Shown piece by piece: positions 5,224-60,312 of a DNA stretch of 63,405 bases (position 1 is the first letter of the stretch; every line of letters begins with the position of its first letter). The stretch lies in the sequence record SRR22947725_3552. One strand, 5' to 3'. The notes under the pieces are model-generated. The model was not told where the DNA came from, did not search any database, and saw only the letters and a list, made by a program, of their open reading frames with translations. The translations under genes and the position numbers were made by a program.

Positions 5224-6462
5224 TCAATTACTGAGCAGCGCTTCGAATTCTCGGAGGCTGGGTCGAATTTCTTTTGCTCGACCTACATGGTCAGCAACTG
5301 CGTCCAGGGTCTTCAAACCATTGCCAGTGATACAAAGAACGGCAGAATCATCTTTGGGAATTTGACCGTTGGCAATGAGTTTTTTGGCAACACCCACGGT
5401 GACACCACCCGCAGTTTCCGCGAAAATACCCTCGCATTCCGCAAGGAGGCGAATGCCTTCTCGAATCTCATCGTCGGTTACATCGTCTCCATGACCTGCT
5501 GTTTCCCGCATGACCTTCAAAGCATAGAAACCGTCCGCAGGTGTACCGATAGCCAGCGATTTCGCAATCGTGTCAGGTTTAACAGGCTTGAAGAAATCCA
5601 GAGATGATTTGTGAGCAGCCGTGATAGGGGAACACCCTGTCGCTTGAGCTCCATGAATGTGGTATTTGGAGTCATCGACAATCCCCAGCTTGGAGAATTC
5701 CTGGTAACTTTTGTGAATCTTGGTCAGAAGCGAACCAGAGGCCATGCAGACAATTGTGTGCTTGGGGATTTCCCATCCTAATTGTTCCATGATTTCAAAT
5801 CCCATGCTTTTCGACCCCTCGGCATAATAGGGCCTCATGTTGACATTAACGAAGGCCCAACTGTATTTGCCGGCAATTTCCGCACATAGACGATTGACTT
5901 CATCATAATGACCTTTGATGCTGATGACTTCTGGTCCATAGACGAGCGAGTTGACAATCTTTCCTTGCTCGAGATCAGCAGGAATAAAAACGAAGGCCCG
6001 AAGACCGGCTGAGGCCGCATTGGCAGCCACAGAGTTGGCTAGATTACCGGTTGAAGCACAAGCAACGGTATCAAAGCCAAGTTCTTTCGACCGACTCAAA
6101 GCAACACTGACAACGCGGTCCTTGAAGGATAAGGTCGGGTAGTTGACAGTATCGTTCTTAATCCATAATTCGCGAATACCCAGGCGCTTAGCCAAGCGGT
6201 CAGCCTTGACAAGTGGAGTGTAGCCAACTTGAAGTCCAACTGTGGGTTCTTTTGCCACTGGGAGGAGCTCACGATAGCGCCACATGCTGTTGGAACGTCG
6301 ACTGATGACTTCGCGATTCAAACTATTGCGAATCAAGTCGTAATCATACGCCACTTCCAATGGGCCAAAATCAAATTCACAGACATGATTGGCTGTCAAG
6401 GGATACTCCCTACCACACTCTCGGCACTTAAGTGCCTTCATATAACCATTTTCTTCACTCAT
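5224..6462 (-). CDS. thrC: Threonine-synthase-like PLP enzyme (fold type II); possible O-phosphohomoserine sulfhydrylase
   Basis: PTLSFKDR (PLP Lys), CASTGNLA, N-terminal CRECG zinc ribbon, ITGNGLK; start moved to ATG 6462 because the longer ORF runs through the riboswitch leader. Confidence 0.88.
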   Translation of the reverse strand: MSEENGYMKALKCRECGREYPLTANHVCEFDFGPLEVAYDYDLIRNSLNREVISRRSNSMWRYRELLPVAKEPTVGLQVGYTPLVKADRLAKRLGIRELWIKNDTVNYPTLSFKDRVVSVALSRSKELGFDTVACASTGNLANSVAANAASAGLRAFVFIPADLEQGKIVNSLVYGPEVISIKGHYDEVNRLCAEIAGKYSWAFVNVNMRPYYAEGSKSMGFEIMEQLGWEIPKHTIVCMASGSLLTKIHKSYQEFSKLGIVDDSKYHIHGAQATGCSPITAAHKSSLDFFKPVKPDTIAKSLAIGTPADGFYALKVMRETAGHGDDVTDDEIREGIRLLAECEGIFAETAGGVTVGVAKKLIANGQIPKDDSAVLCITGNGLKTLDAVADHVGRAKEIRPSLREFEALLSN

Positions 6463-6579
6463 AAGTCCTAAAAGTTGTTTGAAAACGAGTTGGGGTGCGG
6501 GGAAGAAGGTAGAAGAATCATGCCGCATCTGAGCCATTTCGGGCGTCAAATGGCTCCACTTGGAGGGAGGCAATCAACA

Positions 6580-6706
6580 TCTCATCTTTCCCAAACCTTA
6601 ACAGGTTTAAGCTGGAATTGGCACCTTGACATCGAACAATTGAGGTATTGTTCAATCGGTTGCCGTGGTTTCCTAGGGCCAGTTCCCTCAACCACTCTGA
6701 ATGAGA
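6580..6706 (-). ncRNA. SAM-I (S-box) riboswitch
   Basis: Minus strand reads UCUCAUUCAGAG-UGGUUGAGGGAACUGGCCCUAGGAAACCAC-GGCAACC...AAGGUGCCAAUUCCAG...GGGAAAGAUGAGA; P1 UCUCAU/AUGAGA, P2 kink-turn, P3 and P4 are all recognisable. Confidence 0.95.
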
Positions 6707-6729
6707 CCGTCTTATCAACGGATCGGGAT

Positions 6730-40073: not shown

Positions 40074-43000
40074 CTACCTCGTCTGCAAATAACCGATCAA
40101 ATCAGCAAGATCTTGATCGCTCATAGCCTCACCCCACCCCTCTGGCATGAGTGATTGTGAGGATGCTTTGATTGATCGGACCTGAGCCTTGTCAATGAAC
40201 CTCTTTTCACCTGATGTCATGGTCACATGCAAATCGCTGGGTGTTTCATGAGTGATCAAAACCGTCCACTCGACTCCGTCGTTGAGCAACAACTCATGGG
40301 CAATATAAGTTTGTTCAATCGCCTCATTAGGATTCAAAATAGCCGTTAAAAGCGCCAGACCTGAACGATCATTCAAGGAATCTAAATCGGGCCCAACATC
40401 TGCACCCACCGCTTTAAATCGATGACATAACTGGCAATTTTGCTCAAATAATTGGCGACCTCTTGAAGCATCTCGAGTGAGTCTGGCCAAGTTCCCGAAA
40501 CGTTTGGAAATGGATTCTGTTTTCGTCCTGGATAGCCCAAGTCTGGTTCTTCTGTGTTCAATCGCCTCAATAGCCAGAGAGTGAAGTTCCGGGTCAGGTA
40601 GTCTTTTCAGACTAAGTTCCATTTGCTGAGTCATGCTGGTATCGTCAAATTTTTGTTGCGTCTTTTCAAAAACGCCGGTCTTCAGAGATGTCAGAAACAT
40701 CCGTGCTGTCTCGCGGTTTTTCAATGCCATGGACAACAATACGCGACGCTCTTCAAGTGCAGATTGGTTCCACACCTTACCATACCATGTAAAGTTATTC
40801 TTGAACGGCTCCATATCAGAAGCCATGACTTTGAGTATCTCATGCCGTGTTTCATGTGGAATTTCATTTTCAAATGAAAACATATATTCCATCCAGGGAG
40901 CCCAGTCTCGGACACCTCGCGTTGTCCACAAAAACTGAAATGCATGGAAAGGCTCCGAAGCATTCAAATCTCCAAGTCCGGCCAACATACTCATCGCCAA
41001 TCCTTGCATGGCATTCTGAATGTCTGGAGTTGAATCAAACAAATTCAAGTTGCCTCTGTTCTTCAGAAAATGAGAAGCCAAGGAAAGTGCCCGTGTGCCA
41101 TTTATAAGATCAAGTTCATTCATCTTGTGCTCTTTCTGAAACAATGCGATTTCATGAGGAGATAAGAGCTGTATTCCTCCTTCATTAGGTGCGATTTTCT
41201 GCCAGAACCCAACGTTCACGCTTGATTTGATCCATTGCATGACCTTCGACTCCATCCATTCAGGGTGCATATTTACCCCAGCTTTGACCAAAGGCTGTAA
41301 CATCCTGTTTTGCTGGCATTCAGAGCAGGAAATCACGTGACTTAACATGGGGCGAAGATACTGAGAAGCGGCAATCAGGAGCGCTTGCCGCATGGTTGAA
41401 TGATGAGCATGCTCGTGCATGAAAGAAGTGATGCTTTCAATCTTCCAATTTTCATATGCAGAACTGATGGAAAGCATGGCCTGAAACCTGACCGCTGGGG
41501 ATGGATCACGCAGTAGTTCCAGCACTGATTCTGCAGATTGCGCACGACGATTTACGTTGGATTTCGAGTGTAATTCATTTAATGCCACTGCATTTCGGCG
41601 CACTTCAGGGTGATCATCCCTGAAACTGGCTTCCAGAACCTCATCACCCATGTGCCCCAGCAATTCCAGTAACCACAAAACATGAACGCGTGCTTTGGCA
41701 TTGTTTGTTTCCTCTAACAATGCTTTGAGGTCTGGAACTATGTCGCTCGTATCAGATTCAATGATGAGACGCTGAGTGGTATCCCTCACCCAACTATTTT
41801 CATGATTGAGGTAATAAACGAGATCGGATGGCTTTAGATCCGCTAATTTGGGGATTTTATTGGGGATTTTGTTTTTTTTCGCAATAGCGTAAATGCGCCC
41901 TCGATTGCTACCTGCTCGTGTATTCAGATATTGTTCGACGTCATCTGGTATCCATTCGGTATGCTCAATAACCAATCGATACATGTCAGCAATGAACAAA
42001 CTACCGTCTGGACCAGTCTTTGTCATCGTGGGACGAAACCAGGGATCGCGACTCGCAAGGAACTCACGTGCTTGCTCATGGTCAGGGCGCTCAGCGGAGA
42101 AAGTAACTCCATCACGCTTCAAGAGAAAATGGCGCACCAAATTGTGAACGGGTTCACTGACAAAAACATGTTGCAGGTCATCATCAAAGAGCACGTTGTC
42201 ACGATAGATAGTAGGGCTGCAAGCCGATGTAACATGACCTCGCATACCGACGTCATTAAATCTTTGCAGACTGGGAGCAATTTGGTCGATTTTTTTGGAA
42301 GCAAGATCGGCTGCCAATTGTATTTTATTCGACCCTAGATCAGGAATAACGGCCCGCTTTGAGTAACTGTCAGGCAAATAATAATGCCACAACCAGTTTG
42401 GATTATTATTACCAAACCAATTCCCCCAATCATCGCGTGTTCGACCAAATTGCGTTTGACCTTCTATGCCCTCAAACTGCCCTGTTCCAGGATGAAATCG
42501 GAAATCTTTATACCTCAAATTAACAGTTTGATTTGACCATAAGGAGCTTATTTCACCACCACTGTCGCCATTCGCACCATAAAGCCAGTGATCGAGCCCA
42601 TAGGTGAATCCATTCACGCGGTGTTGCTGATTACCCTCCCCAAACCCGGAAAACATATTTCTCCGAAAGTCAGCTTGACCATCATCATCCAAATCAGCCG
42701 CAAAAAACACATGCGGTGCCGCGCTCACCCACAAACCGTTCTCCCATGGATACAGTCCTGAAGGAAACGGTATCCCATCCAGAAAAACAGAGGCCTCGTC
42801 ATAGACCCCATCCCCATCCACATCTTTTAATCTTTTAATTCTTCCTCCGGGCTTGCCATTGGCATCAATACCCAGCGGATAATCACGCATTTCAGCTACC
42901 CAAAGGAATCCATCAGCTGACCATTCAAAAGCAACTGGATCTTCTATCAAAGGCTCCGAGGCCACGCATCTGATCTCGAATGCATCGTCCAATTCGAACG

Positions 43001-44909
43001 CGGACAGAGCTTCATCCACATCTTTGGGTTGAGGGCGATTTCCCAGCAGAATTGCCTCAAAAGACTTACGCTGAACCAAATCAGGCAAATGCGCCGTATC
43101 TTCATTTTGAACCCAAACATGCCCATCGGCAAACCAGGCACCATTATCGCGATGAGGACCTGATCGGATAAAAGCCGGTATCGCGTCTTCATCGCCTCGC
43201 TGACCTTCCATGACCAGTCGGGTCCAACCTCTTTGAAAGCCAAGAACTAACTCAGGAATAAAAATGTAGGCTGCGTAATCTTGCTCATCTGATTTGAGTA
43301 AATCCGCATGACCATCACCATTGATATCAACCAAACGAACACCCGCATCCCGCCCTTCGTCATCTATCAAGTGCAGGTCTTCGGGCCAGGAATAATTCAA
43401 TTCCTCCCAAGTTTGACGACTCTGATTCCATTTTAAAACCCCATGTTGATCAGGGTAAGCGACAATTAATTCATCGATACTATCTCCATCCACATCGTGA
43501 ACGATTACTCCATCTCCACTCCCCTTGAGGACTGTTTGAACCGGTTTCCCTTCGCAGCGAAGTTCTGAAATCAAACTTCCCTTTTCTTCAAACCCATTTT
43601 CAGAGCGCACCCATGCCCCTTCGGAATTTTCAGTTCGATGTAAAAAAGCAACAGGTCCGTTAGCCCAGAATACTCCGTGTTTCAGTCCCGTTGTTTGACC
43701 CGATTTGGTGACAACATTCAGTGATGACTCTACCGTTCGATATTCCTTTTTGGATGGTTGCCAGATGCGCATGGCCTGCTCATTTTCATGCCCCAGAAGC
43801 ACGTCTAGATATCCATCACCATTGGCATCCAGTAATCGGATACCAGCATCATTTCCTCCTGCATTCCGAAGTGATTGTCCATCCAGTAAATTATCTTTCA
43901 AACGATCAGATGCTTCATTGAACGTCAGGAATTTGATACGTCCCCCATACGTCTCAGTAGCGTAGTCAATAAACGCATTCACCTGATCATTCCGAATCCA
44001 TCCGTGAGGGTGGAAGATCCATGTAAATACACCCTGCTTGATCACAGCAATGTCGAGTGCACGCTTCCAGTCCTCCACCGTAATCTCATTATTCACACCA
44101 TGCAGGTTTTGAGCTTCCCAATCACTCGGCGCCAAGGCCGGAAATTCCCAGCAGACATTATTGATAATATAAGGGTATGGGTAATTTTTGATGGTCGTGG
44201 TGAAGGAGGGAAAAGGCACATATTTGGTAAACCGTTCCTTGCCTGCTGCATCCAAAACAAGCTCACGGGGCAACTCCTTGTCATCACTTGTAAAAAGACA
44301 CATCACACTGGAATCGATTTCCATGAAATTCCCTTGTGCAGAGGTTTGAGGAAATATTTCGCTGTAAAATCTCGGGCTAGGAGAATTAATGGAATCACAG
44401 CATGGCATCCTGTAAGCCACCGCACGATTACCGGGAATGGTATTCAGCAAGTCGATGCCACCCATGACAGTGTTGACCGCACTTTGAAAATTCCCCTTGG
44501 CAAGCAGAGGGCATGGGTGAGACAGGGTATGCACTTCCAAAGACAAACCTTCATTCAACCAAGTTTGAAATTGCAGATGATCAGGCTGAAGCGCATTACA
44601 GTAGATACTGACAGGTGCACGACCATCGATCTGTTTCAGCCGTTCAAGGATAGGCCGAAGATAGAACTCGAATTTTTCGGGCGTTCTCAAGTCGTCAATA
44701 GCCAGAATGATCACGGCTTCGACTCCCTCTTCCCCAATCCACTGAGGAGTAGTCAACTTCGGGAACGATTGATTTACATAAAAAGGATTGTTTGGACTGA
44801 GATCCGTTGCTGACTGTAATGACACACACTCAGCAAAAAGAAGGATCAAAACAAACCATTGAAGCACTAAACTGCCTTGAGTTCGCTTTGAACTTTTGTG
44901 GGATGACAT
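40074..44909 (-). CDS. PVC-type heme-binding membrane dehydrogenase fused to N-terminal polysaccharide-deacetylase and FG-GAP domains
   Basis: LAIDD...EVHTLSHPC (NodB-like); DxNGDG repeats; ASEPLIEDPVAF, GPDGSLFIADMYR; HEAT repeats; CQLCH...GPDL...SLMPEG; start ATG 44909. Confidence 0.85.
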   Translation of the reverse strand: MSSHKSSKRTQGSLVLQWFVLILLFAECVSLQSATDLSPNNPFYVNQSFPKLTTPQWIGEEGVEAVIILAIDDLRTPEKFEFYLRPILERLKQIDGRAPVSIYCNALQPDHLQFQTWLNEGLSLEVHTLSHPCPLLAKGNFQSAVNTVMGGIDLLNTIPGNRAVAYRMPCCDSINSPSPRFYSEIFPQTSAQGNFMEIDSSVMCLFTSDDKELPRELVLDAAGKERFTKYVPFPSFTTTIKNYPYPYIINNVCWEFPALAPSDWEAQNLHGVNNEITVEDWKRALDIAVIKQGVFTWIFHPHGWIRNDQVNAFIDYATETYGGRIKFLTFNEASDRLKDNLLDGQSLRNAGGNDAGIRLLDANGDGYLDVLLGHENEQAMRIWQPSKKEYRTVESSLNVVTKSGQTTGLKHGVFWANGPVAFLHRTENSEGAWVRSENGFEEKGSLISELRCEGKPVQTVLKGSGDGVIVHDVDGDSIDELIVAYPDQHGVLKWNQSRQTWEELNYSWPEDLHLIDDEGRDAGVRLVDINGDGHADLLKSDEQDYAAYIFIPELVLGFQRGWTRLVMEGQRGDEDAIPAFIRSGPHRDNGAWFADGHVWVQNEDTAHLPDLVQRKSFEAILLGNRPQPKDVDEALSAFELDDAFEIRCVASEPLIEDPVAFEWSADGFLWVAEMRDYPLGIDANGKPGGRIKRLKDVDGDGVYDEASVFLDGIPFPSGLYPWENGLWVSAAPHVFFAADLDDDGQADFRRNMFSGFGEGNQQHRVNGFTYGLDHWLYGANGDSGGEISSLWSNQTVNLRYKDFRFHPGTGQFEGIEGQTQFGRTRDDWGNWFGNNNPNWLWHYYLPDSYSKRAVIPDLGSNKIQLAADLASKKIDQIAPSLQRFNDVGMRGHVTSACSPTIYRDNVLFDDDLQHVFVSEPVHNLVRHFLLKRDGVTFSAERPDHEQAREFLASRDPWFRPTMTKTGPDGSLFIADMYRLVIEHTEWIPDDVEQYLNTRAGSNRGRIYAIAKKNKIPNKIPKLADLKPSDLVYYLNHENSWVRDTTQRLIIESDTSDIVPDLKALLEETNNAKARVHVLWLLELLGHMGDEVLEASFRDDHPEVRRNAVALNELHSKSNVNRRAQSAESVLELLRDPSPAVRFQAMLSISSAYENWKIESITSFMHEHAHHSTMRQALLIAASQYLRPMLSHVISCSECQQNRMLQPLVKAGVNMHPEWMESKVMQWIKSSVNVGFWQKIAPNEGGIQLLSPHEIALFQKEHKMNELDLINGTRALSLASHFLKNRGNLNLFDSTPDIQNAMQGLAMSMLAGLGDLNASEPFHAFQFLWTTRGVRDWAPWMEYMFSFENEIPHETRHEILKVMASDMEPFKNNFTWYGKVWNQSALEERRVLLSMALKNRETARMFLTSLKTGVFEKTQQKFDDTSMTQQMELSLKRLPDPELHSLAIEAIEHRRTRLGLSRTKTESISKRFGNLARLTRDASRGRQLFEQNCQLCHRFKAVGADVGPDLDSLNDRSGLALLTAILNPNEAIEQTYIAHELLLNDGVEWTVLITHETPSDLHVTMTSGEKRFIDKAQVRSIKASSQSLMPEGWGEAMSDQDLADLIGYLQTR

Positions 44910-44975
44910 GGTGTCATTTAAAATCGGAATTGGCAGATTCAACAAGGAGATTTTGAAATCAATCCACTATAAATA

Positions 44976-46349
44976 TCAGCGAGCAAACACCTCATGCAAA
45001 CTTTCCTGAAGAATGTCCAAAGCAGCATTCATTTCAGCTTCATTGATCGTCAGAGGAGGCGTCAACGTGAGGATGTTGCCCATCGTTATCTTGAAGTTCA
45101 GTCCTTTTGTCAAAGCCGCATACATAACCCCTTCGGCTTCTTCAATGGCTCGTTCTGCTGTTACCGGATCTTTGAGCAGTTCCATTCCCATCAGGAGACC
45201 TTTTCCACGTACATCGCCAATCATGGGGAATGTATCCGCCATTCGTTTCATCCGTTCTACCGCATGATTCCCCATCTTGACGGCATTATCGAGTAAATGG
45301 TCCGATTCAATTACTTCAATGGCTGCCAATGCGGCGGCACAGGCGACTGGATTTTTTTCGTGGGTGTAATGACCAAGAGCCTTGTCTGGCATGGCATCGT
45401 TCAAACCCTCTCTGGCTATCAAGGCTGCCAGAGGGAAGATTCCTCCACCCAGTCCTTTTCCAATCACCACCATGTCGGGCACGATTCCATAATGTTCAAA
45501 CGTGAACATCTTTCCCGTGCGCCCGAGACAATGAGGGATTTCATCCAGAATGAGAAGGGCTCCATGCCTGTCACAGGCTTTGCGTATGCGTTGCCAATAA
45601 TCGGCTGGAGGAATAAACGGTGTCGATCTCACTGTTTCGGCAACCACCGCCGCCACATCGCCCTCTTTCTCGAGGACGTATTCGACGTAATCAGCACAGG
45701 AAAGGTTGCATGATTGACCACATTTGAAAGGACAATGCTTATTGTCGGGAGGGGGAACATGTTCACATCCCGACAAGAGTGGTCCCACTCCGTTTCTGAA
45801 AACCGATTCACCCCCGATGGAAATGGCGTCCAATGAAGCACCATGGAATGAATCCCACATGGAGATGGTTTTATGACGTCCCGTGGCGACTCTCGCAAGC
45901 TTCAATGCCATCCCAATCGCAGACGTTCCACCAGGCGCAAAAAGTACTCGATTTAAATCACCAGATGCGAGCGAAACCAGTTTCTGGGCAAGCCGTATGG
46001 ATACGTCATTTGTGTAACGCCGAGTGCAGAAAGGCATCTCCAGCATCTGCTTGTTGACCGCTTCAACAACCTTGGGGTGACCGAACCCCACTTGATGCAC
46101 ATTATTACCATGAAAATCTATGATCCGGTTTCCTTGAATATCTTCCAGATAAACTCCTTCACACCCCTTGAGCACATTGAGGCAGGGTGTAGACAAGGAT
46201 TGATGCAAAAACACGGAGGCATCTTCCTCTAATTTCTCTCGCGTAGCATCATCCAGTGTTTCTTTCGCCCAGGCCTGCCGGGCCGGAGACAAGTTGATAT
46301 CACCTTCAGATCGCAGATGGTCCAGAGAATCGGAGGATTGTTTTTTCAT
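44976..46349 (-). CDS. pbfA: (R)-1-hydroxy-2-aminoethylphosphonate ammonia-lyase (class III aminotransferase fold)
   Basis: RSEGDIN...FLHQSLSTPCL, DFHGNNVHQVG, SFHGASLDAISIGGE, LGHYTHEKNP are the PbfA signature; phnW is adjacent. Confidence 0.88.
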   Translation of the reverse strand: MKKQSSDSLDHLRSEGDINLSPARQAWAKETLDDATREKLEEDASVFLHQSLSTPCLNVLKGCEGVYLEDIQGNRIIDFHGNNVHQVGFGHPKVVEAVNKQMLEMPFCTRRYTNDVSIRLAQKLVSLASGDLNRVLFAPGGTSAIGMALKLARVATGRHKTISMWDSFHGASLDAISIGGESVFRNGVGPLLSGCEHVPPPDNKHCPFKCGQSCNLSCADYVEYVLEKEGDVAAVVAETVRSTPFIPPADYWQRIRKACDRHGALLILDEIPHCLGRTGKMFTFEHYGIVPDMVVIGKGLGGGIFPLAALIAREGLNDAMPDKALGHYTHEKNPVACAAALAAIEVIESDHLLDNAVKMGNHAVERMKRMADTFPMIGDVRGKGLLMGMELLKDPVTAERAIEEAEGVMYAALTKGLNFKITMGNILTLTPPLTINEAEMNAALDILQESLHEVFAR

Positions 46350-46363
46350 GTGGACTTGATGGC

Positions 46364-47230
46364 TCAGGGATTCTTCTGCAGATCAGATAAAATCTGCTGC
46401 AGCTGCTTCAATTTGTCAGTGTTGATAAAATCCAGTTTAGCTTCGTAAACCGTTTTCCAAAAGTTAACCGTTTCGGGAGTTGCCCAGAAACGAACTTTAC
46501 GCCCCTGAGTATGCGCCTTATCGATCCATTGGTTTAATTTAAATTTTTCAGTAGAAGTGAATTCGCCTCTTCCGTTCCAATTAAAATGACTACGCCAACT
46601 TTCACTTATCCACGGAATGAGAGAAACTGGGTGTTCATTCTTGTCAAGGTCACTGAGCCTCCCGTCAATAAACGCGTATCTCAATTTTTCTCTGGCCAAT
46701 GTCTCAGTCGGTCTATTCCCAGATATGATAACCGTCACTGATCGGTGCTGCATGCCTTTACTACCATATTCTGTTAACATTTCACGATAATCACTGAGGA
46801 GGTCCCTCAGGACAGCGTAGGTTGATTCTGCTTCCGATTTAAAATCTATCATCAGGTAGAAGGCAGGACCCTCTGGATATATTGAACCTGAATTCATCTT
46901 ATGCCTCTTGAGCAATGGCTCCAAGTAAAGGTCTTTGAGGGTGTTTTCGGGCTTTACATCTACTCGATCATGCGCAACCAGAAGTTGAGTTCCCACGACG
47001 AACACATCCGCTTCCACACTACAAAAGCCAGCATCCAGTGCATCAAGCAAGGGTCTGGGATGGTGATAGTCGTTGTGCGCATGAGCATTAGGCAACGGAG
47101 TTACCTCAGCCTCCAGGCATGCCGATTGAAGTGTAAAAGCAAGCCCTACACACAAAGCGCGGAAGACAAACAAACAAACGTGAATCATCATATATTCTGG
47201 TAACTGGTTTTTAGGGCAGGACGCGAACAT
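46364..47230 (-). CDS. Secreted PI-PLC/GDPD-like phosphodiesterase (Aim6-like)
   Basis: AHAHNDY, SVEADV, LLVAHD, LMIDFK, RFWATP, INTD; signal-like N-terminus. Confidence 0.82.
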   Translation of the reverse strand: MFASCPKNQLPEYMMIHVCLFVFRALCVGLAFTLQSACLEAEVTPLPNAHAHNDYHHPRPLLDALDAGFCSVEADVFVVGTQLLVAHDRVDVKPENTLKDLYLEPLLKRHKMNSGSIYPEGPAFYLMIDFKSEAESTYAVLRDLLSDYREMLTEYGSKGMQHRSVTVIISGNRPTETLAREKLRYAFIDGRLSDLDKNEHPVSLIPWISESWRSHFNWNGRGEFTSTEKFKLNQWIDKAHTQGRKVRFWATPETVNFWKTVYEAKLDFINTDKLKQLQQILSDLQKNP

Positions 47231-47237
47231 AAAAGCG

Positions 47238-48368
47238 CTATTTCATGGATACGTTCATGTCTTCCAGGGCGCCTTTGATAGAGGCCACGAGTGCCAACAC
47301 ATCAGATTCAAAGATACGGCCAATGGACCCAATACGAAAGAGGTCTACTTGACTTATTTTTCCTGGATAAATAATCATGCCTCGGTCACTCAATTTTCGA
47401 TAGAAAACATCAAAGGTGAATTTCGAATCTTCGGGAAAATGAAAGCTGGTGATCAGATAACTTTGTAGTTTGGCATCCAGATAGGATTTAAAACCTAAAG
47501 ATGCCATACCACTCATAAGGACTTCATGGTTTCGCTTGTAGCGGGCGGCCCGACCCTCAACACCGCCTTCGGTATCAAGCTCATTCAAAGCTTGCTCGAA
47601 TGCCAGTAAAGAATGCGTTGGAGGGGAATATCTGAATTGACCATTTTTTTCAAATCCACGTAATTGCGCAGCAAGATCAAGGCTCAGAGAACGGGTTGTG
47701 GATTCATTGGCAAACAAGGGGTCACGCTTGGCAATGACAAAGGAAAAACCTGGCACCCCTTCGATACATTTGTTGGCGGATGAAACGAGGAAATCGATGC
47801 AGGCATCCTCGAAATCAATCGGCATGCCTCCCAGACTGCTCATGGCATCCACGATGTAATGACGCTGAGCCGCTTTCACCGTTTTACCAATAGATGCTAT
47901 GGGATTCACGATCCCTGTCGTGGTTTCACAATGCACAACAGCGACATGCGTGATGTCGGTATCCTTCTCCAGGAGTGAGGCCACGTATGCTGGATCGGGA
48001 GGTTCATTTTCACCCGTTCGATAAACGGTATTCTCAATGCGAAGACACTTCAACATCGCAACCATTCGTTCACCATAAGCCCCATTGGATAACACCAGGA
48101 CTTTACCCCCCTCAGGCACGGAAGTGGAGAAAACCGATTCGACACCAAAAGTGCCGCTTCCCTGCAGCAAGATACATTCATAACCCTTCTCCTGTGTCAC
48201 ACCGGCCAGTTTCAAAATGCGTTGGCGAATCTCTTTGACCTTGGCATTGAATTCGAAATGCCAGGATCCAGCATCTCGCAGCATTGCCTGTTTGACAGTC
48301 AGGCTTGTAGTCAAAGGCCCGGGTGTGAAAAGCACTTTATCCCTGGCAGTCGGTAAAGAATTGTTCAT
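47238..48368 (-). CDS. phnW: 2-aminoethylphosphonate--pyruvate transaminase
   Basis: LFTPGPLTTS, QGSGTFGVE, VHCETTTG, VDAMSS, SSANKCIEGVPG, FRYSPPTH, IYPGK. Confidence 0.95.
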   Translation of the reverse strand: MNNSLPTARDKVLFTPGPLTTSLTVKQAMLRDAGSWHFEFNAKVKEIRQRILKLAGVTQEKGYECILLQGSGTFGVESVFSTSVPEGGKVLVLSNGAYGERMVAMLKCLRIENTVYRTGENEPPDPAYVASLLEKDTDITHVAVVHCETTTGIVNPIASIGKTVKAAQRHYIVDAMSSLGGMPIDFEDACIDFLVSSANKCIEGVPGFSFVIAKRDPLFANESTTRSLSLDLAAQLRGFEKNGQFRYSPPTHSLLAFEQALNELDTEGGVEGRAARYKRNHEVLMSGMASLGFKSYLDAKLQSYLITSFHFPEDSKFTFDVFYRKLSDRGMIIYPGKISQVDLFRIGSIGRIFESDVLALVASIKGALEDMNVSMK

Positions 48369-54533: not shown

Positions 54534-55823
54534 TCAAACATCAAGCACAGACTGGTAAACTTGCAGAACACGTTTTGCCATGTGAATGGATTGATGAGAT
54601 TGATTCACCGATCGAATGGCAGCATCAGAAGTTTGTTTTAATCGGGTTTTATCCTTAAGAAGACTGTCGATGCTTTCGGCCAGATCATCTTTGCTCAATC
54701 CTGCAGTCATCACTCCCCCACCAGTTGCTTCGATAATCTCAGGAAAAGCGGCGTGCGGCGGCTGTATCACGGGAACGCCTGCTGCCATGGCTTCGAGCAA
54801 GTAAAGCCCATAGGTTTCTCCGTAGAGTGCCGGGACAGAGAAAACAGTAAGTTTGGAGAAGAACTCAAGTTTTTCCTGGCGATCCAGATTCGGATGCCAA
54901 GTCACGTCGTCCAGACAACCTGCTTGGTTCAACTTGGTTTTAAGAGCTTCAACGACAGGCTCATCAGAGGGGCCCATTCCGCCCCCAACCATCAACCTCA
55001 TGGCCTGATAGTTGGGAAGTTTTTTTAATTCGATGTAGGCATCCACCAGTAAAGGAAGACCTTTCGCTTCGCACATTCTGGCAAAATAACCCAATACAGC
55101 TGGATCATCTGGCAATTGACTTCGCCGGTATCCACCAACAGGAATACCATTGGGAACGACATACAATCGATCCGCGTGAAAACCCAAGCGTGATTGCATG
55201 AGCTCCCCGAAATATCGACTTGGAGCGATGAAGGCATCAATGTCTGTGACGCGCTTTTTCAATACGCCCCAGGCCTCCTGTCGGTTCGGCTCAGGGAGTG
55301 CATCCAAAAAGGTATCTTCTCCTTGGAGCGTGCAAAGCACGGGACAGTTCAAGCTGGATTTCAATTCGGCAGCCATCCCTATTAGCAGGGCATTTGAGAG
55401 ACAAACAACATCTGGTTGAACCTGACCTTTCAGCCAATGAATAAGTTGATCGAGTTCTTTTCGCTGACGGCCATCCTCTCCCATCAGCATGGAAACTGTT
55501 AATTCCCCAACATCTTCGGGACGGGTTTGAGCAGCATATTTAGATATTCTTTTTAAGATGGAGCGCCGATTCAGCCAAGCAGTCCAGCTTGAAGGTAATT
55601 TCCGAAAGAATCCCAGCGTTTGATCCAGAAACACGTTGATGCCCCCAAAAAAAATAGGCGTTTCTGAGCTTTGATCGGCATCTTCAAGTGTCAAAGGTAG
55701 ATACAAAGGAACCATCAAAACTTCATGACCCTCATCCCTCAAGGATTTGACGAGGGTGTTGTCCCGAAAACAACCACCGCAATACATCCCCCCTGCGCCA
55801 GGAGTGATCTGAACGATCTTCAT
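54534..55823 (-). CDS. Glycosyltransferase family 4 protein
   Basis: GT-B; VPNGI, ETYGLYLLEAMAAGVPV; N-terminal GAGGMYCGGCFRDN. Confidence 0.9.
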   Translation of the reverse strand: MKIVQITPGAGGMYCGGCFRDNTLVKSLRDEGHEVLMVPLYLPLTLEDADQSSETPIFFGGINVFLDQTLGFFRKLPSSWTAWLNRRSILKRISKYAAQTRPEDVGELTVSMLMGEDGRQRKELDQLIHWLKGQVQPDVVCLSNALLIGMAAELKSSLNCPVLCTLQGEDTFLDALPEPNRQEAWGVLKKRVTDIDAFIAPSRYFGELMQSRLGFHADRLYVVPNGIPVGGYRRSQLPDDPAVLGYFARMCEAKGLPLLVDAYIELKKLPNYQAMRLMVGGGMGPSDEPVVEALKTKLNQAGCLDDVTWHPNLDRQEKLEFFSKLTVFSVPALYGETYGLYLLEAMAAGVPVIQPPHAAFPEIIEATGGGVMTAGLSKDDLAESIDSLLKDKTRLKQTSDAAIRSVNQSHQSIHMAKRVLQVYQSVLDV

Positions 55824-57103
55824 GCAGGCGAGATGTCGGTTTGCGGTTTTGTCAGAGGCATACCGTAGGGGAGATCTTCAGGAATTTCAGCGAAATCCCT
55901 GATTTTCTCCCACAAAACAGAAAAATCCTTATTCACGTCACCAGAAAGGCAATCGGTCACATCTCCACCTACTTCAGGATACTTATCAATCAGATCCTTG
56001 AAGCTGAATTTCTCATTATAAAAGGCATACACAAGTTTGCGCATATTCTCAATGCCTTCGCACATGACTCGACTGTACTCAGAAAACCTGCCCGGTGACA
56101 GATCATCATCCTTGAGGCATTGACTCACTGTTTCACCGGCAAGGACTCCACTCTTCAATGCGATGAGCAAACCTGAGGAAAAGACCGGATCAAGGAAACC
56201 AAATGCATCGCCAATGAGCAAAAGACCTTTTTCTGAAGAATACCTCGAACGAAAGGTGTATTCACTCGTCGCACGATAGGGTCCAACGGGTTCACCTTCG
56301 GACAGGTATTGGCGGATCCATTTATTCTCGGTAATTTCCCGTTTGAATATGTCTTCTGGTTTTTTAACACCATCGCGGGTCAGATACTTGGCCTCTGCCA
56401 CGATCCCTACAGAAGTTATGTTATTGTGCTGAGGAATGAACCAGAACCATCCTTTTTCGGGTACAAATGCCACTGTGGTAGCCCCCGCATCAATGCCTTC
56501 ATCTCTTTTGGCATCCTGATAATAAGTCCAGACGGCCACTTTGTTGAGGTGGGGATCACGCTCACGCCATTTGTTCTTGGCTACGGAGAAAGCTTCCTTA
56601 CCCGACCCGTCCAGAGTGATTCGAGCGCGCACCTCAGAAACATTACCATCCCTGTCCTGATATTTGACACCCGTAACGGACTGATTTTCATCTCGCAAGA
56701 GGTCTTTGACATTTGTTTCCTGAATGATGTCGACTCCTTTTTCAACCGCATGGTCCAGCATCATCTGATCAAACTCGGAACGAACGACCTGCCATGTCTG
56801 GGACACATTTTCATCATAACGTGTGGAGAAGTAGAAAGGCTGAGAGGTTTCTCCCGATGGAGTCACAAATTGAACGCTGTGCTTTTTGACAAAATGAGAT
56901 TGCCGCATGCGCTCGATGAGGCCGAGACGCTTCAGTGGAAAGTAGGTAAAGGGGATCATGGATTCGCCAACCCGATAGCGTGGGAATTTTTCACGCTCCA
57001 GAATAAGAACCCGATGACCATCCTCTGCCAGGATGCTGGCTGCGCTACAACCGGACGGACCGGCACCGATAATCACAACATCATATTCTTTGTGCATTAA
57101 CAT
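55820..57103 (-). CDS. Flavin-dependent halogenase-like oxidoreductase
   Basis: GAGPSG, FPRYRVGES, FVKK (candidate catalytic Lys), WFWFIP (WxWxIP), GDAFGFLDPVFSSG. Confidence 0.8.
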   Translation of the reverse strand: MLMHKEYDVVIIGAGPSGCSAASILAEDGHRVLILEREKFPRYRVGESMIPFTYFPLKRLGLIERMRQSHFVKKHSVQFVTPSGETSQPFYFSTRYDENVSQTWQVVRSEFDQMMLDHAVEKGVDIIQETNVKDLLRDENQSVTGVKYQDRDGNVSEVRARITLDGSGKEAFSVAKNKWRERDPHLNKVAVWTYYQDAKRDEGIDAGATTVAFVPEKGWFWFIPQHNNITSVGIVAEAKYLTRDGVKKPEDIFKREITENKWIRQYLSEGEPVGPYRATSEYTFRSRYSSEKGLLLIGDAFGFLDPVFSSGLLIALKSGVLAGETVSQCLKDDDLSPGRFSEYSRVMCEGIENMRKLVYAFYNEKFSFKDLIDKYPEVGGDVTDCLSGDVNKDFSVLWEKIRDFAEIPEDLPYGMPLTKPQTDISPA

Positions 57104-57121
57104 TAAGTTTGCTTAGTTCCC

Positions 57122-57715
57122 TCAACTTTCAAGCTCTATTTGAGTTTCAGGTAGGATTTCAATAATTTCGGCCAGTGATTCTCCTGATGGATTGGACAGG
57201 CGGTTCCTCCGTCCGTAATGCCATCGCCCCTTGGAATCACCCAGCGTCTTCTTGATTAATTGATCGGGCTCCATTCTAAGATAACCAATCGGACAACTGA
57301 CATGTTCCACCTGGTGATTTTCAAGAATGTGTCCGAGGGGCATGTGTTCTTTCAGGATAGCTTCACGGGCGTTTCTGGGCAGCCTTTCCAGAAAGATGCG
57401 GATCGCTCCAAATTCTACTGGCTGGTGATTTTTCTCCAGCTTCAGGACCACTTCACGGAAGTAATACTGATCAGAATAATCTCTGTGAAGGACATCTATG
57501 TAAATCTGATCGCCGTGAAACCCTTCGAGCGTTGGCGTCATATCCTTTTGATGTACAACCAACCTTTGAAACGGTTGAGGAATTTGATCCGGTTCCACTT
57601 GCTCCAATTTTGGGAGAACCATGTTTTGCCGCTGATAACAATAATCCAGCGGGTACCAAAACGAAGACGTCTCAGCAAGAAGGGACAGTGATGATTCACT
57701 ATTCTCTTTTGCCAT
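57122..57715 (-). CDS. Chorismate pyruvate-lyase-like (UbiC/DUF98 fold) protein
   Basis: DMTPTLE, YFREVVL, PLGHIL, YGRRNRL and IIEILP match the UbiC-like pattern. Confidence 0.65.
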   Translation of the reverse strand: MAKENSESSLSLLAETSSFWYPLDYCYQRQNMVLPKLEQVEPDQIPQPFQRLVVHQKDMTPTLEGFHGDQIYIDVLHRDYSDQYYFREVVLKLEKNHQPVEFGAIRIFLERLPRNAREAILKEHMPLGHILENHQVEHVSCPIGYLRMEPDQLIKKTLGDSKGRWHYGRRNRLSNPSGESLAEIIEILPETQIELES

Positions 57716-57717
57716 GC

Positions 57718-59070
57718 TTAAACAAGCCTTTGAGTTAGATGCTGTGGCAGAAAAAATTCATGAAGCAATCGGTCCACTTGAAGTAAACCTTCACGATTCA
57801 ACTTAATCTCATCTCCATCAATCTTCAGGAACCCCCAATCGGCAATTCGCTTGAGTGGTGCCTCAAATTTCTTTTTCACATTCACTCCGAATTTTTGATC
57901 AAAATAACTGCAGCGCGTATGCCCAAGCTTAAGTTGCAGTATGAACTCCCGTATCAAGCGTTCTTCGTTCGATGGAGTAAGTGCGCGGTATACAGGCAAA
58001 TTACCATCCAGAATCGCATTCACATAGGGTTCGAAATCAGCATTGTTCTGGTAATGCGTGCCACCGATGTGCCCAAAGGAAGCCACACCAACGGAGAGAA
58101 GATCAGCGCCTTCCCATAGCCGGTCACGGTAGATAAATTTGGTTCGATCTTTATCTTTAACGGCTGTGTATGCGCTGGTTACGGTATAACCTTCCTTCTC
58201 CAACTCGCCAAAAGCATAATCAACCCATCGACGCTTGGTTACCCAATCAGCCACAGGAGCTGTCAACTGCCCGGAATCTTTCATCTGACGGTAAATCCCC
58301 GTGTTGAAAGGCACTTCCATTTGATAAATGGTCACGCTGTCTGGCCCCAGTTCAAGAGTGCGCTCAACAGCCATTTTCCATTTTTCTTCAGTCTCCTCCA
58401 GCATCCCAGCAATGAGATCGATGTTCACCTGTGGAAATTCAATCTCACGGGCGTATTGATAAGCTCTAAAAACCTCTTTGGATCGATGAGCGCGCCCGTT
58501 GGTTTCAAGAATGTGGTCATCGAAATGCTCTACTCCCAGACTGAGTCTGGTCACCCCAACGTCCCTGATGGCTTTGAGCTTTTGATCTGTTAGAGTTCCT
58601 GGTTCGCATTCAAACGCAACTTCCTCAGCCTCGTCCCAAGGCAGAACCGCCTTCATACGATCAGTCAATGACGTTAGTTGGGGCACTGACAGATACGAAG
58701 GAGTTCCTCCTCCAAAATAAACAAAGTTGGGTTTTCGTCCACCTATGAAAGGCTTGGAGGCATACGCTTCCAGTTCTTTAACGGCTGATTCCAGGTATCC
58801 GTTGATTGCGGTCGCGTTCTTGTCTGTATAAACTTTGAAGTAACAGAAGTGACAGCGCTTCCGGCAAAATGGAATATGGAGGTAAAGTCCCATTTTTGTA
58901 TCAGGGGATGGAGGACGTTCGATAGCTTCGAGAAACTCTCCCACATGATCCGGCTTCCAAAAAGAATAAGGAGGGTAATTGGACACAAAATAATTGCCCG
59001 CTGTCGTCGGCTTCTTCTCAGGCTCCATCTGCCTTTGTGTCTCTGAATCTGTGTTCGCTACTTCATTCAT
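57718..59070 (-). CDS. HemN-like radical SAM protein
   Basis: LYLHIPFCRKRCHFC, YFGGGTPS, RLSLGVE, NIDLIAG; start likely ATG 59070. Confidence 0.9.
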   Translation of the reverse strand: MNEVANTDSETQRQMEPEKKPTTAGNYFVSNYPPYSFWKPDHVGEFLEAIERPPSPDTKMGLYLHIPFCRKRCHFCYFKVYTDKNATAINGYLESAVKELEAYASKPFIGGRKPNFVYFGGGTPSYLSVPQLTSLTDRMKAVLPWDEAEEVAFECEPGTLTDQKLKAIRDVGVTRLSLGVEHFDDHILETNGRAHRSKEVFRAYQYAREIEFPQVNIDLIAGMLEETEEKWKMAVERTLELGPDSVTIYQMEVPFNTGIYRQMKDSGQLTAPVADWVTKRRWVDYAFGELEKEGYTVTSAYTAVKDKDRTKFIYRDRLWEGADLLSVGVASFGHIGGTHYQNNADFEPYVNAILDGNLPVYRALTPSNEERLIREFILQLKLGHTRCSYFDQKFGVNVKKKFEAPLKRIADWGFLKIDGDEIKLNREGLLQVDRLLHEFFLPQHLTQRLV

Positions 59071-59124
59071 AATTTTAGGTAATTTACCTCTTTGCTGGTT
59101 CTTACTGCGCTTGAACAAGGTGGA

Positions 59125-60312
59125 TCAGGGCTGTGATTTGGAATGAAAACCATAGACACTTCCATCCTCACTGCCGATCACAACCCAGTCGTTGATCACT
59201 GCAGGTGAACTCGTCAGCGGCTGCCCCACGTCAATGGACTGGATTTCCCTGCCATCTTCAAGCCGCACGCGATAAAGCCTGCCGTCTTCGGAGCCAAAAA
59301 CGACTTCCTCGCCCACCACTACAGGTGAGCTATCCACCTTGCCCCGAGTGGAAAATCGCCAGATTCGTTCCCCCGTTTCACGGTTCAAGCAGTGCAATTG
59401 CCTGTCCCTGCCACCTATCATGACTTTATCTTCAACGATTGCAGGTGATGAGTAGTAAGGAAAGCTACGGTCACGATACTTCCATTTGAGTGATCCCTGG
59501 TCGAGGTCGAAACATAGGAATTCACTTTCATAATGCCCCACATAAACCTTGGAACCTGCCATCGCGACGGATCCAGCAATGTAAGCACCAGCTTCTATCT
59601 CCTTAACCTTTTTGCCATCGGAAAGTTGTATTACATGCAGCAGCGCATCACAGCCACCGAATACGGTTTGGCCATTCGACACAGCAGGCGAGCCATTGAT
59701 GTAGTTTTCAGTCTCATAATCCCAAACTTTCGTGCCATCGTCAGCTCGAATGCAATGAAGGCGAAAGTCATAACTTCCTGCCAGTATCCAGGTATTTTTT
59801 CCATCTGGCGATTGAATCCAATTTGGGCCCCCCAGAACTTGATCTTCGGTTTCATATTTCCAAACGAGCTTTCCATCTGCAGCCCGTAGTTTGTAGACGA
59901 ATCCGTCTCCCGAACCTACGTAAACATGGTCTTCAAGAACGAGTGGCGAGCTTTCTACGTTTCCCTGAGTTTCGAATTTCCAGATGAGCGATCCATCATT
60001 TAAATTCAAGGCATAAACAAAACCATCATCCGATCCGATGAAGACACGGCGTTTGACGATGGCCGCCGATGATTTGATAGAGGATTGGGCTTTAAATACC
60101 CAGGTTTCTTGGAGGGAGGCTCCTAGTTTCGCAGGTGAAAAACCATCAAGAGAAGGATTCCCTCGATACATGGGCCACGACTCCGCCGAGGCAATGCCTT
60201 CAGCGGCATCGGCTGTTTCCGTCTCTTCTGCCAGCAATCCGCTCAAGAGCAAAAAAGAAGCAAGTAAGAAACAAAAAGCTTTGGGTTGAAAAAATCTTTG
60301 CTGGTTCATCAT
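59125..60312 (-). CDS. Secreted PQQ-like beta-propeller repeat protein (BamB-like)
   Basis: Signal peptide; WPMYRGN; repeated SSP...GSxDG...W blades. Confidence 0.88.
   Translation of the reverse strand: MMNQQRFFQPKAFCFLLASFLLLSGLLAEETETADAAEGIASAESWPMYRGNPSLDGFSPAKLGASLQETWVFKAQSSIKSSAAIVKRRVFIGSDDGFVYALNLNDGSLIWKFETQGNVESSPLVLEDHVYVGSGDGFVYKLRAADGKLVWKYETEDQVLGGPNWIQSPDGKNTWILAGSYDFRLHCIRADDGTKVWDYETENYINGSPAVSNGQTVFGGCDALLHVIQLSDGKKVKEIEAGAYIAGSVAMAGSKVYVGHYESEFLCFDLDQGSLKWKYRDRSFPYYSSPAIVEDKVMIGGRDRQLHCLNRETGERIWRFSTRGKVDSSPVVVGEEVVFGSEDGRLYRVRLEDGREIQSIDVGQPLTSSPAVINDWVVIGSEDGSVYGFHSKSQP

Follow-up and report, generated by a model that had tools for sequence, protein, structure and literature searches.

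This study concerns an operon of five genes in a 63,405-nucleotide (nt) stretch of DNA (sequence record SRR22947725_3552, hereafter the window) and the system of about 16 genes of which this operon is one piece. The five open reading frames (ORFs), all on the minus strand between positions 54534 and 60312, encode in order a beta-propeller of the pyrroloquinoline quinone (PQQ) type, an enzyme of the radical S-adenosylmethionine (SAM) type, a protein with a predicted chorismate-lyase fold (hereafter the lyase), a flavoprotein and a glycosyltransferase of family GT4 (Table 1). The gaps between the first four genes measure 6 nt (54 nt if the second begins at an ATG, see below), 2 nt and 18 nt, and the flavoprotein and GT4 genes overlap by 4 nt. 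An initial annotation, made from the sequence alone, had described five co-oriented genes in this order with very short gaps or overlaps, which we confirmed. The window derives from a marine Verrucomicrobiota lineage; in its closest named record, Pedosphaera sp. MED719, the radical SAM protein is 99% identical and the flanking genes are the same. Genome-level context was taken from the nearest genome (G001, 79% complete), whose radical SAM protein is 100% identical to that of the window. Promoter and terminator scans of the operon stayed at chance level. Parts of the operon are contained in 12 RNA-labelled runs, in all cases as contigs, and in the best of these intergenic DNA is covered as evenly as genes.

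Table 1. Genes of the operon (aa, amino acids; positions are those of the window)
Feature	Position	Strand	Remarks
PropD, eight-bladed PQQ-type beta-propeller	59125..60312	-	395 aa; probable signal peptide, invariant Cys; use/maturation module
HemN-like radical SAM enzyme, putatively of class C type	57718..59118	-	PF04055 + HemN_C; synthesis module
Predicted chorismate-lyase-fold protein (DUF98/UbiC-like)	57122..57715	-	197 aa; precursor supply
PltA/CndH-type flavin-dependent halogenase-like enzyme	55820..57103	-	427 aa; synthesis module
GT4 glycosyltransferase, N-terminal CGxCxxDN + EX7E	54534..55823	-	429 aa; use/maturation module

A GTDB search with the radical SAM protein gave at least 575 relatives among 599 candidate stretches, and neighbouring genes were counted in the best 80 loci retrieved, many of which are cut by contig ends. 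The lyase gene was found in 69 of these 80 loci, a propeller in 58 (a few of the matches being weak non-orthologues), the flavoprotein in 42, and the GT4 in 20, a clustering that exceeds chance. Less frequent were a 4HBT thioesterase (11 loci), a PaaK-like ligase (9) and a small membrane protein (6). Loci and genomes together revealed synteny across two phyla, Verrucomicrobiota and Acidobacteriota, as the initial annotation had anticipated. The radical SAM gene is single-copy, ~60-70% identical and present in ~70% of one order, whose members come from soil, fresh water and sea water. The plasmid collection held no orthologue of it: its 210 matching records were all below 60% identity, the 30 listed being at 24-30%. 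Two candidate additions to the operon were rejected, i.e. selD as a sixth gene, which adjoins in just 1 of the 80 loci, and the upstream ATP-binding cassette (ABC) ATPases as a constant neighbour, which belong to mixed families. Several records titled Akkermansia, Klebsiella or Bifidobacteriaceae (L009, L016, L046, L048, L052, L055, L059, L063 and L073) carry a radical SAM protein 64-70% identical to that of the window; the titles of these bins are probably wrong.

The whole set of genes is contiguous in genome G002. It begins with three propellers, a sodium symporter, an EhpF-like adenylase, an aldehyde-dehydrogenase-fold protein and an iron alcohol dehydrogenase, continues with PropD, the radical SAM enzyme, the lyase, the flavoprotein, the GT4, a thioesterase, a membrane protein and a PaaK-like ligase, and ends with an ABC ATPase and a 1,100-aa duplicated-FtsX permease. 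Up to four propellers are part of the cluster itself. Similar blocks occur in Acidobacteriota genomes and in 50 mapped metagenome loci (80 retrieved), and in G001 the remaining genes sit on contigs C46, C37 and C51. The initial annotation was therefore right about the five genes but too narrow in its boundaries, as about eleven further genes of the system lie elsewhere in the genome. Its view of a self-contained pathway does not hold either, since synthesis needs a ligase, a thioesterase and acid-reducing enzymes encoded outside the operon. The EhpF-like adenylase aligns with EhpF along its whole length (E 9e-40) and is followed by its aldehyde-dehydrogenase-fold partner, an arrangement common to GriC/GriD (grixazone) and EhpF/EhpG (D-alanylgriseoluteic acid). 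According to the available text of PMC10179220, the former pair converts an aryl acid into its aldehyde by reduction. In contrast to both pairs, the mapped clusters contain no 3-amino-4-hydroxybenzoate (3,4-AHBA) or phenazine core genes, and the partner is likened by fold and position. In or beside the cluster, a DUF116-polyprenyl synthase gene was seen in five loci and a squalene-cyclase-like gene in four (L034, L035, L265, L289 and L290); in L265 the synthase gene lies between the radical SAM and lyase genes. These prenyl genes may mark a prenylated variant.

The radical SAM ORF spans 466 aa from a TTG; the ATG at 59070, which gives 450 aa and matches the start of relatives, is the likely start. 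The CxxxCxxC core and the GGGTPS loop are present, and the HemN_C domain barely reaches its cut-off (24.2 vs 24 bits). The protein had been said to lack both PRYTSYP of HemN and HNxxYW of HemW. The latter is indeed absent; the former is also absent, but GPRYTSYPT of HemN aligns with GNYFVSNYPP, in which the Arg is replaced, so that this segment is altered rather than missing. Scores fall below the cut-offs of the HemN model TIGR00538 (186 bits, cut-off 325), the HemW model TIGR00539 (166 bits, cut-off 205) and the HutW, HemZ and STM4012 models; the PDB matches are HemN (1olt) and NocN (9p2u). In a quick tree of 29 chosen rows, the cluster orthologues group in a single clade, separate from the paralogues (Shimodaira-Hasegawa-like approximate likelihood ratio test, SH-aLRT, 96). 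Judged by these scores and motifs, the enzyme is HemN-like and of the class C type yet neither HemN nor HemW, as initially proposed.

One-carbon unit transfer is given as HemN-like enzymes' main activity in the available part of PMC10114718, where the class C enzymes NosN/NocN and MenK/MqnK, which have the HemN-like architecture in common with the enzyme of the window, add such a unit to an aromatic ring; NocN is one of the two PDB matches. Identity is however ~25-30%, the window's enzyme belongs to a clade of its own, no thiopeptide or menaquinone genes lie nearby, and no men or mqn genes recur beside it in the mapped loci, the contrast with MenK being one of gene context alone. NosN acts beside an acyl-activating ligase, and the family of the window is likewise found beside PaaK-like genes.

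A second radical SAM paralogue group (L117-L122), 43-46% identical, is accompanied in L119 and L121 by a further flavoprotein and a B12-type radical SAM enzyme, and in L117 and L118 by a PaaK-like ligase. By their gene content, these appear to be distinct clusters, as yet uncharacterised, that draw on the same kinds of parts. A link to ladderane clusters, in which a HemN-like enzyme, a PaaK-like ligase and a B12 radical SAM enzyme are also combined, was rejected for the cluster of the window and may at most concern these paralogue clusters: there was no usable match in the accessible text of PMC2649909, and genes for fatty-acid synthesis or the like do not recur in the loci. In G426 (L112:1287-4657), a repeated unit that translates as LHCLSAFTAFPT lies upstream of the radical SAM gene and is suggestive of a CRISPR-like array.

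The lyase has no Pfam or NCBIfam match. Its predicted model (predicted local distance difference test, pLDDT, 91) superposes on the DUF98 protein AF1396 (Z 16.2, root-mean-square deviation, rmsd, 2.3, 145 residues aligned) and on UbiC (Z 11.5, rmsd 3.2, 143 aligned), and UTRA domains of regulators reach Z 8-12, similar to the score of UbiC. M35, R77, L115 and E156 are the product-binding residues of UbiC. M59, R87, P126-G128 and R169 of the lyase align with M35, R77, PLG and GRR of UbiC, and conservation among 112 sequences is high (M59 and R87, 112/112; L127, 106/112; E186, 111/112, which the sequence alignment places one column away from E156 of UbiC). The model thus points to a fold of the chorismate-lyase type with the conserved residues of UbiC, which bears out the initial call; UbiC and AF1396 share this fold, and most residues at the active-site positions are kept. 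The protein differs from both by its low identity (~20%), an extra N-terminal segment and the lack of an adjoining ubiA, and, among the 36 Acidobacteriota genomes with the radical SAM gene, it is present in 11 and absent from 25. Among 43 loci with a radical SAM or flavoprotein gene (mostly from one lineage, duplicates included), a TonB receptor occurs in 27 and the lyase in 4, never both, and 12 have neither. The receptor scores above the siderophore-receptor cut-off, its nearest model being the catecholate receptor Fiu. As the lyase is patchy and never found with this receptor, the pattern fits a replaceable source of precursor.

The flavoprotein carries GAGPSG (GxGxxG) and WFWFIP (WxWxIP), as had been noted, and its best PDB matches are halogenases (8zop, 3e1t and PltA, 5dbj). 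K74 aligns with the Lys of 3e1t, so that a Lys stands at the catalytic position, and K74 and WFW[YHF]IP are kept in all 86 homologous matches. The score for CmlS is 209 bits, against 84-121 for the hydroxylase models QhpG, LodB and GoxB. The halogenase-like designation was thus borne out, and the protein would be of the PltA/CndH type, halogenation and hydroxylation both being possible. No carrier protein recurs among ORFs of at least 70 aa in the 80 loci, and we infer that the substrate is a coenzyme A (CoA) thioester rather than carrier-bound.

The initial annotation had compared the operon with the marine bmp cluster. In the available text of 10.1101/723874, a chorismate lyase and a halogenase lead to secreted bromo-aromatics in Pseudoalteromonas, and the same is proposed for a planctomycete (baaAB, Planctomycetales strain 10988), whose BaaB is ~44% like Bmp5. 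In both, a chorismate-lyase-like gene adjoins a flavin halogenase-like gene, as here, and to that extent the comparison stands; it is loose for the halogenase, which as far as tested would be of a different type, its best matches being PltA/CndH-type and its separation from Bmp5 and BaaB being by description. No P450 recurs in the cluster of the window, unlike bmp. That baaAB is the same cluster was rejected on that description, which gives a Bmp5-like brominase and, in the part available, does not include the radical SAM enzyme, ligase, reductases, GT4, exporter or propellers.

PropD matches Pfam PQQ_2 (136 bits) and is not BamB (TIGR03300, 150 bits, cut-off 285). Its AlphaFold model (pLDDT 95.8) has eight blades, and the closest folds are YxaL (Z 44.9), tetrathionate hydrolase (Z 43.2) and Rv3035 (Z 40.4). 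The motif xGCD is kept in 96/96 homologous matches (GGCD in the window, with C221), and an N-terminal hydrophobic stretch, seen by eye, is the basis for calling the protein secreted. Among solved structures, the GT4 (PF00534/PF13439) lacks a close relative, the best match being at E 1e-10. The odd N-terminal CGGC reported for it is present, within MYCGGCFRDN, and CGxCxxDN was found in 113/121 homologous matches. Three proteins, i.e. the GT4, the permease and PropD, carry invariant cysteines. Some propeller paralogues have lectin-type domains, and PropA (L083:8717-11047 and orthologues) has a conserved C-terminal domain of ~200 aa without Pfam match that, by eye, looks like a concanavalin-type lectin fold. 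In G001, the GT4 (G001:C4:91211-92262) and the large PropA (G001:C46:91072-93298) are each split in two frames, by either assembly error or decay; the GT4 of the window is whole. In the ESM Atlas, the nearest clusters of GT4 and PropD look-alikes include Bacteroidota, Planctomycetota and Hydrogenedentota, a lead that these genes extend beyond the two phyla tested.

Co-occurrence with propellers, counted as PF13360 matches, was assessed in 151 genomes of the order of G001, of which 123 had at least 9 matches (propeller expansion) and 28 at most 3. Radical SAM orthologues were found in 104 genomes (G414, with a paralogue only, was scored negative), the EhpF-like gene in 100, the flavoprotein in 104 and all three, mostly on different contigs, in 95. 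Every genome with any of these synthesis genes had at least 9 matches (107/107), and no synthesis gene occurred in the low group (0/28). The GT4 was present in 115/123 expansion genomes and 0/28 others, and the permease and the PaaK orthologue of the cluster were also at 0/28. Among 151 Acidobacteriota, all 36 genomes with the radical SAM gene had at least 10 matches, against 8 of the 115 others (the 115 include one negative row from the unpublished G479). Expansion does not follow genome size, being present in genomes of 2.6-2.7 Mb and absent from some of 5.0-5.6 Mb, and in two within-genus pairs (G408 vs G348, G450 vs G362) both traits differ together. pqqC was above its cut-off in 2/123 expansion genomes and 5/28 others, and was not found in G001 as far as this genome is complete. 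The idea of a cofactor bound by the propellers, put forward in the initial annotation, gains real support from this association in genomes without pqqC.

The pattern of loss separates two modules. Sixteen expansion genomes are devoid of the radical SAM, EhpF-like and flavoprotein (0/16) genes; the GT4 and the permease are each retained in 14 of them, and the PaaK orthologue in 2. The five genomes tested further (G435, G344, G328, G394 and G448) had no radical SAM orthologue even at a loose threshold and kept PropD and PropB; PropA was found in none (0/5), and thus goes with the synthesis module. In G435, a single contig from the genus of G001, PropD is followed by the GT4 after 45 nt; the two are also directly joined in G328, G394, G442 and G310, and G448 keeps the lyase alone between them. 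Such loci were mapped in 15 synthesis-less genomes, the genes being apart or cut by contig ends in the remainder. In the stretches around the listed propellers of five expansion-positive Acidobacteriota without the radical SAM gene, use-module genes were found in G472 and G574 and not in G605, G550 and G542. Given these joins and losses, the middle three genes of the operon are dispensable, and the first and last are retained alongside the exporter and the family of propellers. This is the structure of producers and salvagers.

Tentatively, we see the operon as the core of a split system by which a small aromatic ligand or cofactor for the large family of periplasmic PQQ-like propellers is made or salvaged, matured and exported. 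We give this slightly less than an even chance; the same, not quite even, likelihood is given to a ligand that is derived from 4-hydroxybenzoate, halogenated or hydroxylated, one-carbon-modified, reduced and glycosylated. That the synthesis module yields a modified hydroxybenzoate of some kind is probable. The lyase would convert chorismate to 4-hydroxybenzoate, or the symporter and TonB receptor would import the acid, and the PaaK-like ligase would form its CoA thioester. The flavoprotein may then halogenate (or hydroxylate) the ring and the radical SAM enzyme add a one-carbon unit, before the 4HBT-type thioesterase releases the acid. Reduction to the aldehyde would fall to the EhpF/GriC-like adenylase and the aldehyde-dehydrogenase-fold reductase, and that to the benzyl alcohol to the iron alcohol dehydrogenase. 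After glycosylation by the GT4 in the cytoplasm, the duplicated-FtsX ABC transporter would carry the product to the periplasm, where PropD and PropB may take it up and hand it on to other propellers; the invariant cysteines hint that this handling is thiol- or metal-based. Genomes lacking the synthesis module would depend on product or precursor made by their neighbours. The order of these steps is a guess.

Several observations weigh against this reading. PropD scores far below the quinoprotein models (TIGR03075, 71 vs 480; TIGR04528, 57 vs 650), non-redox scaffolds (YxaL, Rv3035 and BamB) are among its nearest folds, and 42 diverse paralogous propellers have no invariant catalytic set, only residues of the repeat structure and a moderately kept Arg. 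The lyase of the window has Cys141 where 82/112 relatives have Arg. At most 17 candidates were scored for PF13360 per genome, and the 3-4 propellers of the cluster itself are included in the counts; fuller scoring of three genomes gave 13, 14 and 35 matches at E 1e-15, first-look candidates numbering up to 171 and 322. The co-occurrence was counted without a control family, so that a lifestyle in common may be part of its cause, and related genomes are not independent of one another. The cluster is sparse at the phylum level (radical SAM gene in 5/301 genomes of a phylum-wide sample). Two PaaK-positive genomes among the 16 synthesis-less ones, and others, may simply be incomplete, and no salvage transporter was identified in such genomes. 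Lastly, the product, the enzyme activities and the binding by propellers are all predicted.

Among the rival explanations, an envelope-modification machine is the likeliest, though still unlikely: the GT4, the ABC transporter, PropD and PropB would glycosylate, export or fold propellers or build a glycolipid, the aromatic being an optional, perhaps lipid-anchored, decoration. The use module does track propellers more tightly than the synthesis module, and Rv3035, a close fold neighbour of PropD, supports an envelope glycosyltransferase in the available text of PMC13041763. The five loci with a DUF116-polyprenyl synthase, with or without the cyclase-like gene, and the lectin-type domains of some paralogues would also suit it. 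FtsX-type permeases transport lipoproteins and other envelope cargo. This account is nevertheless at odds with the GT4 being interleaved, and often translationally coupled, with the aromatic enzymes in both phyla, with the finding of no synthesis module without propeller expansion, and with the loci of the window's order, where prenyl genes were not seen. We consider it quite unlikely that the product is an ordinary secreted specialised metabolite, i.e. a hydroxybenzyl compound, halogenated and methylated, that serves in defence or signalling, with the GT4 and exporter serving self-protection or detoxification and the propellers following lifestyle. The bromo-aromatics outlined above (10.1101/723874, available part) and the intact halogenase motifs speak for it, and non-producers might retain detoxifying genes; but the cluster itself contains as many as four propellers, none of the 28 non-expansion genomes has the exporter or the GT4, and a single-copy gene, ~60-70% identical in ~70% of an order across habitats, is housekeeping-like.

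There is a slim chance that the system serves metal acquisition, the flavoprotein hydroxylating 4-hydroxybenzoate to a catechol-type chelator and the propellers and Cys motifs handling the metal complex. The siderophore-type score of the TonB receptor and its nearness to Fiu, the invariant cysteines of three use-module proteins and feoAB after the cluster in one locus agree with this; non-producers, however, retain the exporter and the cytoplasmic GT4 and not an uptake set, no siderophore synthetase recurs, and the receptor is missing from the mapped Verrucomicrobiota clusters. That the radical SAM protein is a spare haem enzyme (HemN/HemW) with unrelated neighbours is highly improbable. Relatives do bear the database label 'oxygen-independent coproporphyrinogen III oxidase', and two G305 paralogues adjoin genes that by eye appear to be for haem synthesis, but the protein is under all HemN and HemW cut-offs, its substrate-binding segment is altered, and its gene is gained and lost together with those of the flavoprotein and the EhpF-like protein.

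Returning to the reading of an aromatic ligand for propellers, one of its closest parallels is the PQQ system (pqqABCDE, apo-quinoproteins and PqqU), which likewise combines a dedicated radical SAM pathway, expanded presumed clients of the eight-bladed PQQ-type propeller fold, producers and non-producers, and a TonB receptor; mycofactocin resembles it as a logic. Unlike both, no peptide precursor or SPASM enzyme was seen, and unlike PQQ, pqqC is missing from 121/123 expansion genomes, the propellers lie far under the quinoprotein dehydrogenase models, and a GT4 and an ABC exporter belong to the retained set. It is possible, though rather unlikely, that the product is a new redox cofactor other than PQQ (a methylated hydroxybenzyl quinone or quinone-methide precursor that is either halogenated or hydroxylated) installed, perhaps covalently, by a dedicated GT4/ABC/propeller relay and traded between producers and salvagers; at the same modest likelihood, its clients would be the 'empty' propellers of PQQ-like kind, tens to more than 100 of them, in Verrucomicrobiota, Acidobacteriota and probably Planctomycetota. 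Each enzyme is of known fold, but no known system fits, as membership in HemN, HemW, BamB and PQQ fails. No description of the cluster or its tie to propellers was found in searches of the open-licence literature. The system is real, conserved, undescribed and larger than initially seen.

Elsewhere in the window, selD (60450 to ~61500, minus strand) carries a TGA codon in frame at 61448-61446 (within CAG*AAK), where selenocysteine usually stands, and its start is therefore upstream of that of the listed ORF. A SAM riboswitch (RF00162, 80.8 bits; 6579-6707, minus strand) lies directly upstream of the gene of a pyridoxal phosphate (PLP)-dependent enzyme (5224-6573). On the minus strand at 40074-44945, a 1623-aa fusion combines FG-GAP repeats, DUF7133, HEAT repeats and cytochrome c, its N-terminal part having no Pfam match at the threshold used. 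Class III and class V aminotransferases flank an unassigned 288-aa gene at 44976-48368 (minus strand), a region that, by its gene content, we take to resemble aminophosphonate breakdown genes.

Bacteria of these phyla that are abundant in soil, fresh water and the sea encode many secreted PQQ-like propellers, mostly labelled as BamB or PQQ-binding, and most genomes tested lack pqqC. As the loss pattern of the pathway is tied to this propeller family, the system offers a direct route to asking what these propellers bind. If true, the cofactor reading would make a family of periplasmic enzymes out of one of the largest expansions of a protein family still lacking an explanation in these phyla. 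Even on plainer readings, a halogenase-type enzyme in ~70% of an order would suggest either that organohalogens come from a widespread source not yet on record or that class C radical SAM enzymes perform a further, new reaction.

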